Assembly: GCF_003334815.1 (NCBI RefSeq)
Contig: NZ_QOWO01000015.1
Length of the DNA: 64,000 nt
Strand: one strand, 5' to 3'
Source: Escherichia coli
GTDB lineage: Bacteria; Pseudomonadota; Gammaproteobacteria; Enterobacterales; Enterobacteriaceae
The position numbers were made by a program, and so were the translations under genes. Positions 50,768 to 53,548 of this stretch are shown in pieces. The notes under the pieces are model-generated. The model did no database searches, had not been told where the DNA came from, and saw only the letters and a list, made by a program, of their open reading frames with translations. How positions within the stretch are numbered: the first letter of the stretch is position 1; each line of letters opens with the position of its first letter.

Positions 50768-52018
50768 ATGGAAAGTAAAGTAGTTGTTCCGGCACAAGGC
50801 AAGAAGATCACCCTGCAAAACGGCAAACTCAACGTTCCTGAAAATCCGATTATCCCTTACATTGAAGGTGATGGAATCGGTGTAGATGTAACCCCAGCCA
50901 TGCTGAAAGTGGTCGACGCTGCAGTCGAGAAAGCCTATAAAGGCGAGCGTAAAATCTCCTGGATGGAAATTTACACCGGTGAAAAATCCACACAGGTTTA
51001 TGGTCAGGACGTCTGGCTGCCTGCTGAAACTCTTGATCTGATTCGTGAATATCGCGTTGCCATTAAAGGTCCGCTGACCACTCCGGTTGGTGGCGGTATT
51101 CGCTCTCTGAACGTTGCCCTGCGCCAGGAACTGGATCTCTACATCTGCCTGCGTCCGGTACGTTACTATCAGGGCACTCCAAGCCCGGTTAAACACCCTG
51201 AACTGACCGATATGGTTATCTTCCGTGAAAACTCGGAAGACATTTATGCGGGTATCGAATGGAAAGCAGACTCTGCCGACGCCGAGAAAGTGATTAAATT
51301 CCTGCGTGAAGAGATGGGGGTGAAGAAAATTCGCTTCCCGGAACATTGTGGTATCGGTATTAAGCCGTGTTCGGAAGAAGGCACCAAACGTCTGGTTCGT
51401 GCAGCGATCGAATACGCAATTGCTAACGATCGTGACTCTGTGACTCTGGTGCACAAAGGCAACATCATGAAGTTCACCGAAGGAGCGTTTAAAGACTGGG
51501 GCTACCAGCTGGCGCGTGAAGAGTTTGGCGGTGAACTGATCGACGGTGGCCCGTGGCTGAAAGTTAAAAACCCGAACACTGGCAAAGAGATCGTCATTAA
51601 AGACGTGATTGCTGATGCATTCCTGCAACAGATCCTGCTGCGTCCGGCTGAATATGATGTTATCGCCTGTATGAACCTGAACGGTGACTACATTTCTGAC
51701 GCCCTGGCAGCGCAGGTTGGCGGTATCGGTATCGCCCCTGGTGCAAACATCGGTGACGAATGCGCCCTGTTTGAAGCCACCCACGGTACTGCGCCGAAAT
51801 ATGCCGGTCAGGACAAAGTAAATCCTGGCTCTATTATTCTCTCCGCTGAGATGATGCTGCGCCATATGGGTTGGACTGAAGCGGCTGACCTGATTGTTAA
51901 AGGTATGGAAGGCGCAATCAATGCCAAGACCGTAACTTATGACTTCGAACGTCTGATGGAAGGCGCTAAGCTGCTGAAATGTTCAGAGTTTGGTGAAGCG
52001 ATCATCGAAAACATGTAA
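50768..52018 (+). CDS. icd: NADP-dependent isocitrate dehydrogenase, 416 aa, uninterrupted
   Basis: Full-length [41 protein letters not shown]... with a native C-terminus and terminator; no prophage junction. Confidence 0.96.
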
Positions 52019-52039
52019 TCTCTCCATGTGTTAAATATT

Positions 52040-52073
52040 GAAACGGGCGTATAACACGCCCGTTGTTTTATTT
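52040..52073 (+). terminator. icd intrinsic terminator
   Basis: Hairpin AACGGGCG-TATAACA-CGCCCGTT followed by GTTTTATTTA. Confidence 0.65.
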
Positions 52074-52120
52074 ATGTGGATATTATTAATAGCATATCGA
52101 GCATATTTATATGAAGCCCA

Positions 52121-52444
52121 TTACTTGAGCCCATATGGGCATATTTTTATAATGCAACTATTATGTAAACATTTATTTGTTATTTTGCTTTCTCCTGGAG
52201 GACACTCTTGACTGCTTTTGAGTAAACTCCATAAATCCTTGTTGAATGGTGCGATGTGATAAATAGTAATAGGATATTCTTTATCCTTAAGGATAATACC
52301 AGACTTAACCGGTGTAAATATACTGCCAGGAGGGAGAAATATAGTAGATTGATACCAGATGATCATTTTCATATTACCCCATATGGCTGAAAAAGATATA
52401 CCACATGTAGGTTGAATTACCGTGTCAATTACTATCCACTTCAT
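52121..52444 (-). CDS. iraM: Anti-adaptor protein IraM (RpoS stabiliser under Mg2+ starvation), 107 aa
   Basis: 107-aa [15 protein letters not shown]...CPYGLK recognised as IraM (YcgW); low-GC coding sequence. Confidence 0.85.
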
Positions 52445-53143
52445 TTGTTATGTCTTATCCCACGGTATTTAATATGGTTCATTAGGATGTTTATTTCTTG
52501 ATTTTGCATATGAGTATATTACCCCCCCCTCAAAAAAATAAATTAATTAAAATGATGGCTTATATAAAATAAAATTTAAAGCAAGGAATCTCAATGGATG
52601 TTAAACAAAATGAGATTTTGTGAAAGCAATAAATTATTGACTTCGTTTTAGATTTGTTTAGCTATAATGTTATACATTCAAATGACTGAACATCCTGTAA
52701 TTAAAACATAGCCTTTATGCTACTTTGTGCCAATTTGCTAAACATTATGGTTGCCTTTTTATATAACGATAATAATGAATATAAGCATGACATGAGAATA
52801 AGGTTTCAATTTTTGAGTTATATAGGAATGATTTAACCTGTTCCTGGCTAAAATACATATAACCGGATGATGACTAAACCAAAATACATGTGCGTTAAGT
52901 ATTGAAACGGACGTGTGGCACGGCCGTTGTTTTTATAAATATGTTAACCGTTATAAAATAACGTATCAAAAGTCAAGTGATCACATTTCAAATATCAAGT
53001 TGATAGTATTAGTCTGGTGATTATTTATGGGTGACAATAAAAAGACAGTATTAATCATCCATAGAGATAGTCTCTGCACTTTTATTTCCATTATGCTAAT
53101 GCCTTACTGAATTATGAAGCATTTCTTAAGTATCCAACTTTAG

Positions 53144-53548
53144 CTAGATTAATGGTTTATTATTTTCTACATCTTCAATATATAAAAGCGTATTATCAAT
53201 GGCGTAGTAACTGCGTTTGTTATGATTAACATCAGTAACCCACCGGAAAACGCCCGCGCCTGCCAGTGTTGAACAGTATTCCCGAAATGTAGATTTTCCG
53301 CAAATATGAAGCAATGCGGCCTCTTTTATTTTAGCAGGGTTCTTGGTCGTACTAACTTTTAACAGGTTCCTGGTTCCTCTTAATAACAAAACCGTATCAT
53401 CGTGAGTAATAATTCTGATGTTATCCGTAGCCAGATAATAAATGTAATGTGCAATACGGTGATGTTTTAATTCTGAATAAAACCAGGAGAAGTTTTGCTC
53501 TTTTCTCACTTGCTCAAACATCTTTTGAAAAACAACGACCTGATCCAT
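53144..53548 (-). CDS. ycgX: DUF1398 protein YcgX, 134 aa
   Basis: 134-aa ORF in AT-rich context, upstream of bluR in the remembered K-12 order. Confidence 0.8.
   Translation of the reverse strand: MDQVVVFQKMFEQVRKEQNFSWFYSELKHHRIAHYIYYLATDNIRIITHDDTVLLLRGTRNLLKVSTTKNPAKIKEAALLHICGKSTFREYCSTLAGAGVFRWVTDVNHNKRSYYAIDNTLLYIEDVENNKPLI

Follow-up and report, generated by a model that had tools for sequence, protein, structure and literature searches.

A duplicated icd terminator around iraM in Escherichia coli as the probable scar of an ancient integrative element

Introduction

The 3' end of icd, the gene of isocitrate dehydrogenase, is a known integration target of e14 and of phage-21-type elements, and e14 is said to attach within icd itself. 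Here we describe a related arrangement around iraM, whose product couples the PhoPQ low-magnesium signal to stabilization of the stress sigma factor RpoS. The DNA is a stretch of 64,000 nucleotides of an Escherichia coli chromosome (assembly GCF_003334815.1, contig NZ_QOWO01000015.1), referred to below as the window. Two copies of the icd terminator bracket iraM: copy 1, directly after icd, and copy 2, on the far side of iraM. These repeats are probably the scars left at the two junctions, left and right, of an integrative element of ancient date. This element, most likely a lambdoid prophage, would have entered the icd 3' end in the manner of e14 and phage 21.

The surroundings of this arrangement have been studied from two sides. 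icd is a documented island hotspot in extraintestinal pathogenic E. coli (PMC7545054), and the IraM/IraL/RssC anti-adaptor family is evolutionarily labile and made up of acquired genes, with iraL on the potB island and iraM absent from CFT073 (PMC4045071; Hryckowian et al. 2014). The latter paper places iraM on e14, a placement that the present analysis corrects: the chromosome in the window is that of a K-12-like E. coli with no e14 prophage, and as it has iraM, the gene lies outside e14. The terminator duplication, the 864-bp unit that it delimits, the long haplotype and the ymgB-like partner gene described below are not in PMC4045071, and a literature search on iraM or ycgW together with icd returned no account of them. 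The lability of iraM, iraL and rssC as acquired genes and the icd hotspot are thus already known, and the locus is a fresh example of a well-known type of scar.

The closest described system is e14/icdC. The iraM element would share with it the target gene, the supply of a surrogate icd 3' end, and the displacement of the earlier 3' end and terminator as a non-functional duplicate. In e14-bearing K-12 strains the match to the window resumes at 51854, where an icd pseudogene is annotated, 165 nt ahead of the icd stop. In these strains the displaced icd fragment lies immediately left of copy 1. Unlike e14, the iraM element in its K-12 type has decayed to one gene with no integrase left, and the coding part of its displaced copy is deleted in the common haplotype. 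A second likeness is to the phage-21-type prophages and "PAI-icd" (pathogenicity island at icd; sit/iss islands), whose cargo comes to lie at the right end, next to the displaced icd fragment. The cargo itself differs, being trkG, iraM and a ymgB-like gene in the iraM element and sit and iss in PAI-icd.

Two copies of the icd terminator

icd occupies 50768..52018 on the plus strand (open reading frame and annotation). Copy 1 (52025..52069, plus strand) is the working icd terminator; its hairpin, at 52042-52064, is followed by a T-run and faces the convergent iraM gene (52121..52444, minus strand). Copy 2 (52887..52933, plus strand), which is securely homologous to copy 1 over about 52892-52933, is best read as what is left, after decay, of an icd 3' end and terminator that were displaced, comparable to a right attachment site (attR) or icdC.

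The initial annotation of this DNA had reported that about 55 bp after the icd stop recur in degenerate form about 860 bp downstream, and this is borne out at the positions it gave. A repeat search aligns 52027-52069 with 52891-52933 without gaps at 36 of 43 positions (84%) and a spacing of 864, and allowing a 2-nt indel lets the match reach leftward to CATGT. The pairwise alignment that had been proposed as a check puts the similarity far above that of dinucleotide shuffles: the Smith-Waterman score is 53, compared with 20.6±2.3 and a maximum of 31 for shuffles of the downstream 1.9 kb. A degenerate 21-nt core has exactly two sites in the 64 kb (0.01 expected). Copy 2 is also matched (E=1.7e-5, whole window searched) by an nhmmer profile built from icd 3' ends of Escherichia, Citrobacter and phage 21, and with this profile no third, older relic of the icd 3' end was found elsewhere in the window.

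Other classes of repeat do not account for the pair. REP/BIME-like elements (repetitive extragenic palindromes and bacterial interspersed mosaic elements) are multicopy, whereas here there are two copies in 64 kb with no additional nhmmer match, and in scans of sequence collections every occurrence of the motif is at icd, copy 2 or a prophage-icd junction. A target-site duplication by a transposon or insertion sequence (IS) does not fit either, as the repeat is at least about 45 nt long and derived from icd; the iraM segment has no bounding inverted repeats and no transposase in the window. A search against Rfam gave nothing approaching a gathering score.

The two copies differ in their folding. 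On the plus strand copy 1 forms nine pairs (six of them GC) followed by the T-run, at -18.4 kcal/mol (z -4.5), and has the properties of an intrinsic terminator; its minus strand also folds as a hairpin (-17.3 kcal/mol, z about -4.5). Copy 2 in the window, scored with a 5-pair stem and T-run, reaches -11.7 kcal/mol (z -0.2; other strand z -1.5), which is no better than shuffles, while its stem is whole in some other lineages. The earlier description of the recurring segment as including the hairpin and T-run therefore holds for sequence homology, but the hairpin of copy 2 is damaged in the window.

Presence and absence of the 864-bp unit

The iraM segment is present in 3944 of 5426 complete E. 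coli genomes. Where it is missing, the span is shorter by exactly 864 bp, and the junction runs from icd through a copy-1-type terminator into the sequence that otherwise follows copy 2; in phylogroup B2 the single terminator is likewise followed by the 50 nt that adjoin copy 2 on its right. A query with a synthetic junction recovered this contiguous empty site in at least 1076 genomes, all with a copy-1-type single terminator. No empty site with a copy-2-type single terminator, which would be a sign of recurrent deletion, was found among them, the best match to such a chimera being 97.3%. Genomes without iraM and with one repeat copy, as had been predicted from the window, thus exist, and they represent a site that is either unoccupied or precisely vacated.

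The 25 best of the 1076 empty-site matches were inspected by name, and the top ones are strains that we take to be B2 references (ATCC 11775, Nissle 1917, NU14 and APEC O18). For B2, secondary loss between the repeats is more likely than a site that was never occupied. Strain CE10, presumably of phylogroup F, carries iraM, and the insert is also present in a lineage that branches outside K-12 and B2, which together argue against primary absence in B2.

E. albertii is uninformative as an outgroup for the empty site, since a decayed phage-21-like remnant is fixed at its icd and the genes from ycgX through pdeG are missing. This remnant is shared by loci L030 and L032-L038 and includes a truncated integrase, RusA and Q. 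In L030, the only E. albertii locus reaching far enough, an omptin gene and ymgF follow, and there is no ycgX-bluRF-ycgZ-ymgAB-pdeG block; that whole AT-rich block may accordingly be an older accretion at the icd hotspot. A metagenome scaffold designated "E. albertii RluE" (L031) was set aside, as it is K-12-like in the icd-iraM region.

The long haplotype and the icd relic

The origin of copy 2 is most legible in a 6.3-kb form of the locus (L088-L094), found in 19 RefSeq genomes (for example Z0117EC0005), several further assemblies and one Logan contig. From the left it comprises icd, a consensus terminator, a Citrobacter-like flank, a gene for a hypothetical protein of 455 amino acids (WP_032302883.1), a transposase fragment and trkG, followed by iraM, a ymgB-like gene, an icd relic with copy 2, the E. 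coli-type flank, ycgX and bluR. The iraM gene of this form has 81% DNA identity to that of the K-12 type. In the phoQ-rluE core the lineage that carries it stands at about 96.5% identity to K-12 and equally far from B2. At icd it is again equally distant from K-12 and B2 (about 96.5%), and from ET201 as well, so that at these loci it branches outside all three.

In the long form ATCAAGAATATGT, which corresponds to the last icd codons (I K N M), precedes copy 2 and lies 38 nt before the stem, compared with 39 in icd. Searched with nhmmer, the long-form copy 2 covers profile positions 166-232 (E 2e-9 to 6e-11), and the short form of E. coli covers 187-232. A repeat-anchored alignment of the long form scores 12, against -1.0±2.7, a value reached by none of 5000 shuffles and by none of the 5739 other 34-mers of the contig. 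The icd codons and their collinear spacing indicate that copy 2 descends from the icd 3' end plus terminator. The direct repeat of the icd 3' coding end and terminator is accordingly divided between haplotypes, with the terminator part in the window and the coding part only in the long haplotype. In K-12, L019, L021, L018 and ET201, icd coding homology 5' of copy 2 did not rise above shuffles in local and anchored alignments; K-12, L019 and ET201 have lost about 215 nt in the icd-relic part ahead of copy 2. A block just 5' of copy 2 (CTGCTAAAAT...GATGATAACTAAG) that by eye resembles a decayed icd end was rejected (nhmmer E 2.5; shuffle counts of 336-1839 of 2000), being significant in no lineage.

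The sequence beyond the terminators bears on which copy is the older. The right flank of copy 2 (52934..52985, plus strand) is homologous to the post-icd-terminator sequence of C. braakii, Citrobacter sp. Cu233 and a related contig; the anchored alignment with C. braakii and Cu233 scores 17, against -0.3±3.3, and was equalled by none of 3000 shuffles. No similarity was found between this flank and either the phage 21 arm or the K-12 sequence after copy 1. It appears from the Citrobacter-like homology that copy 2 keeps the older contiguity. In the long form a Citrobacter-like flank follows copy 1 as well, and as the flanks of both copies are homologous, the duplicated unit extends from the icd 3' end through the terminator into the flank, by at least 45 nt. 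Since this unit takes in the 3' coding sequence of icd, the most likely place of the crossover is within icd, which is also where it lies for e14 and phage 21. With phage 21 homology ends at the T-run, whereas the left unit of the iraM element runs at least 45-150 nt further into the Citrobacter-like flank.

It was also observed that about 45-150 nt of this flank are conserved between Citrobacter and Escherichia, with wholly different genes beyond (L012 3676-3760; L088 about 13170-13060, minus strand; window 52934-52985). The conserved flank has G-rich repeats, AGTTTGGGGTAGGTTGGGG, reminiscent of CCCCAAAAC, which is repeated next to the integrase gene of phage 21, and could be a set of integrase arm sites.

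Between the K-12 type and the long form stands the ET201 type (1.3 kb; 11 genomes), with a complete ymgB/ariR-like gene between iraM and copy 2. This gene is intact at 84-86 amino acids in both the ET201 type and the long haplotype, and tblastn gave no match to its protein in phages. The K-12 type has a 436-bp deletion of the gene, with a junction near 52475-52477 (the alignment to ET201, locus L003, breaks at 52474/52478). What remains is a 5' stump at about 52480-52509, with the start codon and about 10 codons (window 52445-52520; L003 2276-2743), in the iraM upstream region (52445..52886, minus strand). The stump in K-12 and the intact gene elsewhere mark the K-12 iraM upstream region as a deletion derivative of a pair in which the ymgB-like gene is followed by iraM. 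The intact gene is 40% identical to an AriR/YmgA-family open reading frame at window 56855-57073. The initial annotation had the AT-rich segment between the copies carry only iraM, which is nearly so, except that the stump and an annotated gene for 14 amino acids, ymgK, are also present.

Phage affiliation of the genes between the repeats

IraM, an RssB anti-adaptor and the putative cargo of the old insert, matches NCBIfam NF007393 at 172.6 bits as well as phrog_4407. Its paralogs, at 55-70% identity, are found in Stx2 phages (beside stx2B), in E. albertii prophages and in E. coli prophages, where they are encoded antisense, with the Q antiterminator gene on one side and the nanS-p/lysis genes on the other. 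The present analysis thus assigns these paralogs to the Q-to-lysis cargo slot of lambdoid prophages. iraM has 72.6% DNA identity to the Stx2-phage gene, confined to the coding sequence; homology between the flanks of the two loci was considered and rejected, as the similarity stops at the ends of the coding sequence. The trkG gene of the long form is about 90% identical in DNA to Rac trkG, and its product scores 167 bits against phrog_1916, compared with 61 bits for chromosomal TrkH. Genes of phage or mobile origin between the repeats thus include iraM (phrog_4407), trkG (phrog_1916) and the transposase fragment.

Phages that integrate at icd carry the same terminator. Phage 21 (AF017626) and its relatives have 165 nt of icd and an identical terminator directly beside int, with homology stopping at the T-run. 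In O157-type and E. albertii genomes, phage-21-type prophages or their remnants begin exactly at this junction. In CE10 a sit-bearing prophage, an icd pseudogene, copy 1, iraM and copy 2 are stacked in this order. In viral and genome collections searched for phage-borne terminators with copy-2-type markers, only copy-1-type terminators stood at phage junctions and copy-2-type ones were always in host flanks; the genome-collection scan (9 loci) missed E. coli itself and so was not exhaustive.

Variation of copy 2 among lineages

In most E. coli lineages copy 2 has kept its stem: in four lineages other than K-12 it is CATGTGCGTTAAGTATTGAAACGGGCGTATGGCACGCCCGTTGTTTTT or at most one substitution away from it, with the stem intact. 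Three substitutions and a 2-nt indel separate CATGTGCGTTAAGTATTGAAACGGGCGTATGGCACGCCCGTTGTTTTT from copy 1; the K-12 copy 2 has acquired more changes. The degeneracy of copy 2 in K-12 is recent decay, so that the earlier characterization of it as degenerate is correct for the window and specific to the K-12 lineage. The stem of copy 1 shows no variation at 74 loci from E. coli, E. albertii, Citrobacter and phage 21, whereas copy 2 has 10 variants, of which seven carry a stem mismatch at differing positions, amounting to at least six distinct stem-breaking changes. Such scattered stem-breaking changes beside an invariant copy 1 stem mark copy 2 as a relic under relaxed constraint.

At window 52907-52925 the two added K-12 changes strike both partners of one stem pair (G-C to A·G), and pairing is unrestored. 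In one strain IS200C sits right after the T-run of copy 2 (GTTGTTTTT|GTGCACAG; L019, about 2050-2770), and in L020 it does so at copy 1 as well as copy 2 (about 485-1200 and about 2060-2780); insertion at both copies means that both terminators serve as the same insertion target. The copy 1 loop of L020 is inverted, with GTGTTATAC in place of GTATAACAC.

A different proposal concerns the present function of copy 2 and is compatible with its origin as an icd relic: copy 2 may be kept as a terminator or insulator that blocks minus-strand ycgX-ymgL transcription from entering the PhoP-controlled iraM promoter. It lies just where it would separate ymgL from the iraM upstream region, its inferred ancestral form had a perfect 9-bp stem, and an L021-type variant folds stably on the minus strand only (-17.6 kcal/mol, z -2.1). 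Such a role is nonetheless unlikely in view of the stem mismatches at differing positions in seven of the ten variants against an invariant copy 1, the folding of both strands of copy 2 in the window no better than shuffles, and a minus-strand tail, TTTCAATAC, that is a weak U-tract. Without further evidence, annotating the second hairpin as a functional terminator is not warranted.

Model of accretion at icd and its alternatives

Taken at its most probable, the history of the locus would begin with the integration into icd of an element carrying a surrogate icd 3' region and terminator. Because the element brought its own icd 3' end and terminator, icd would have stayed intact and the previous 3' end and terminator would have been pushed downstream. 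Copy 1 would then be the terminator now serving icd, and copy 2 the displaced earlier one, still attached to its old downstream flank. The cargo (trkG, iraM and the ymgB-like gene) would have come to adjoin the displaced icd end, like the sit genes in phage-21-type lysogens. Decay may then have stripped the integrase and most other genes, the long haplotype being a less reduced form. In the common haplotype a deletion from T-run to T-run would have fused copy 1 to the 3' side of iraM. Two further deletions of the K-12 type probably followed, one of 436 bp that removed the ymgB-like gene and a third, of about 215 nt, that removed the icd-coding part of the relic. Copy 2, with no detectable constraint, would be mutating away. 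In B2 the whole unit would have been lost, probably once, by recombination in a 15-nt block, CACGCCCGTTGTTTT, of the then near-identical terminators.

An old site-specific insertion at icd, as first suggested from the window, is supported by the single-copy genomes, by the shared terminator of icd-integrating phages, by the phage family of IraM and by the icd coding sequence in the long form. Several points weigh against the model. No integrase, excisionase or phage structural gene was found between the repeats of the K-12, ET201 or long types by open reading frames and Pfam. As no integrase survives, the term prophage rests on the cargo genes and on analogy, and membership among the junction scars is reached by inference; a missing tyrosine integrase at the left junction is as expected after decay. 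The icd-coding evidence comes from an orthologous haplotype diverged by 19-26% and is undetectable in the window itself. The relic is short, with 13 exact nt and about 22 aligned, and an additional collinear icd block in the long form is not significant alone. The Citrobacter-shared flank could be a conserved end of an island family, which would change which copy is "native" and leave the accretion model as it is. The polarity in B2 comes from local gene trees, and the sampling of named outgroup species was limited to E. albertii. Lastly, loci L086 and L087 lack copy 2, ymgL and ycgX and have a neighbour other than icd, so that the model needs a further rearrangement there. In these two Logan contigs the end of a LysR/PcaQ-like gene, an IS3 fragment, iraM (71% protein identity) and the ymgB-like gene are followed directly by the bluR 3' region.

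It has also to be considered that the attachment core was the icd terminator itself, used by a small integrative module with the crossover in CCGTTGTTTT, copy 2 as the module's own diverged terminator at its right end, and the B2 empty site as a bacterial attachment site (attB) that was never occupied. The repeat in the window is limited to the terminator, with no icd coding homology detectable, CACGCCCGTTGTTTT, the last block that is shared, contains the junction of the empty site, every one of the 1076 empty sites has a single terminator of the same copy-1 type, and IS200C after the T-run of both copies marks the site as recombination-prone. Yet in the long haplotype copy 2 is preceded by icd coding sequence and followed by a flank that is homologous too, which makes the unit larger than the terminator on both sides, and the Citrobacter-like contiguity with the flank is kept by copy 2 and not by copy 1. 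An integrase is absent, and the insert in CE10 and in the lineage outside K-12 and B2 speaks against primary absence in B2. We regard such a module as quite unlikely.

A purely local event, by homology-facilitated illegitimate recombination on the terminator or by tandem duplication of the icd 3' end later filled by iraM, could draw on the absent integrase, on several junctions at T-runs or microhomology and on an AT-rich region that rearranges often (IS200C, IS1 and IS3 insertions), but is improbable, because the layout equals that of known lysogens here (on the left an icd 3' end and terminator supplied as surrogates, on the right the displaced pair), the genes between the copies come from phage families, and a plain tandem duplication leaves the diverged homologous flanks, one of them Citrobacter-like, unexplained.

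Neighbouring genes and haplotype divergence

The gene order in the window is rluE (minus), icd (plus), iraM (minus), ycgX (minus), bluR (minus) and bluF (minus). The first gene right of the scar is ymgL, a small annotated open reading frame (52966..53091, minus strand; mapped by offset from the RefSeq annotation of L001 and L002). Next is ycgX (DUF1398; 53144..53548, minus strand), the older-side neighbour of the scar, an open reading frame that belongs to a phage-associated family (phrog_413, E 1.5e-41). The low GC content of the iraM interval, 0.26-0.35, extends well beyond copy 2.

The last 250 nt of icd (window 51768-52018) are 93-95% identical to other E. coli and the first 1000 nt 98-99%. 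A divergence of this kind is consistent with the icd 3' end having been replaced repeatedly by phages. The iraM-ycgX interval (window 52445-53143 compared with L003 and L094) has 77-81% identity in non-coding DNA and iraM and 88.6% in ycgX, unlike bluR and icd of the same genomes, which are 96-99% identical. The diverged iraM-ycgX haplotypes suggest old allelic lineages or introgression. In a long-haplotype strain (L094 9803-12757) an IS3 element and genes of the STM2901 family and DUF1493 separate rluE from icd, which are adjacent in K-12.

Implications

The general understanding of such elements is unchanged by these results. What the locus illustrates is that repeated integration into one gene leaves a legible stack of displaced gene ends. 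A more speculative thought, to which we give little credence, is that the terminator pair could be a built-in recombination cassette by which lineages cleanly and repeatedly gain or lose the link from PhoPQ to RpoS through iraM, that copy 2 is kept in many lineages to insulate the iraM promoter from ycgX read-through, and that the scar would then be a functional part of the difference in RpoS between B2 and other phylogroups.

For the biology of E. coli, the analysis provides a likely origin of iraM, as cargo of a decayed element at the icd hotspot that was originally partnered with a ymgB/ariR-like gene. The 864-bp unit is an exact presence/absence unit, absent in about one quarter of sequenced E. 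coli. It amounts to a clean natural knockout and may be used to compare RpoS regulation between phylogroups.

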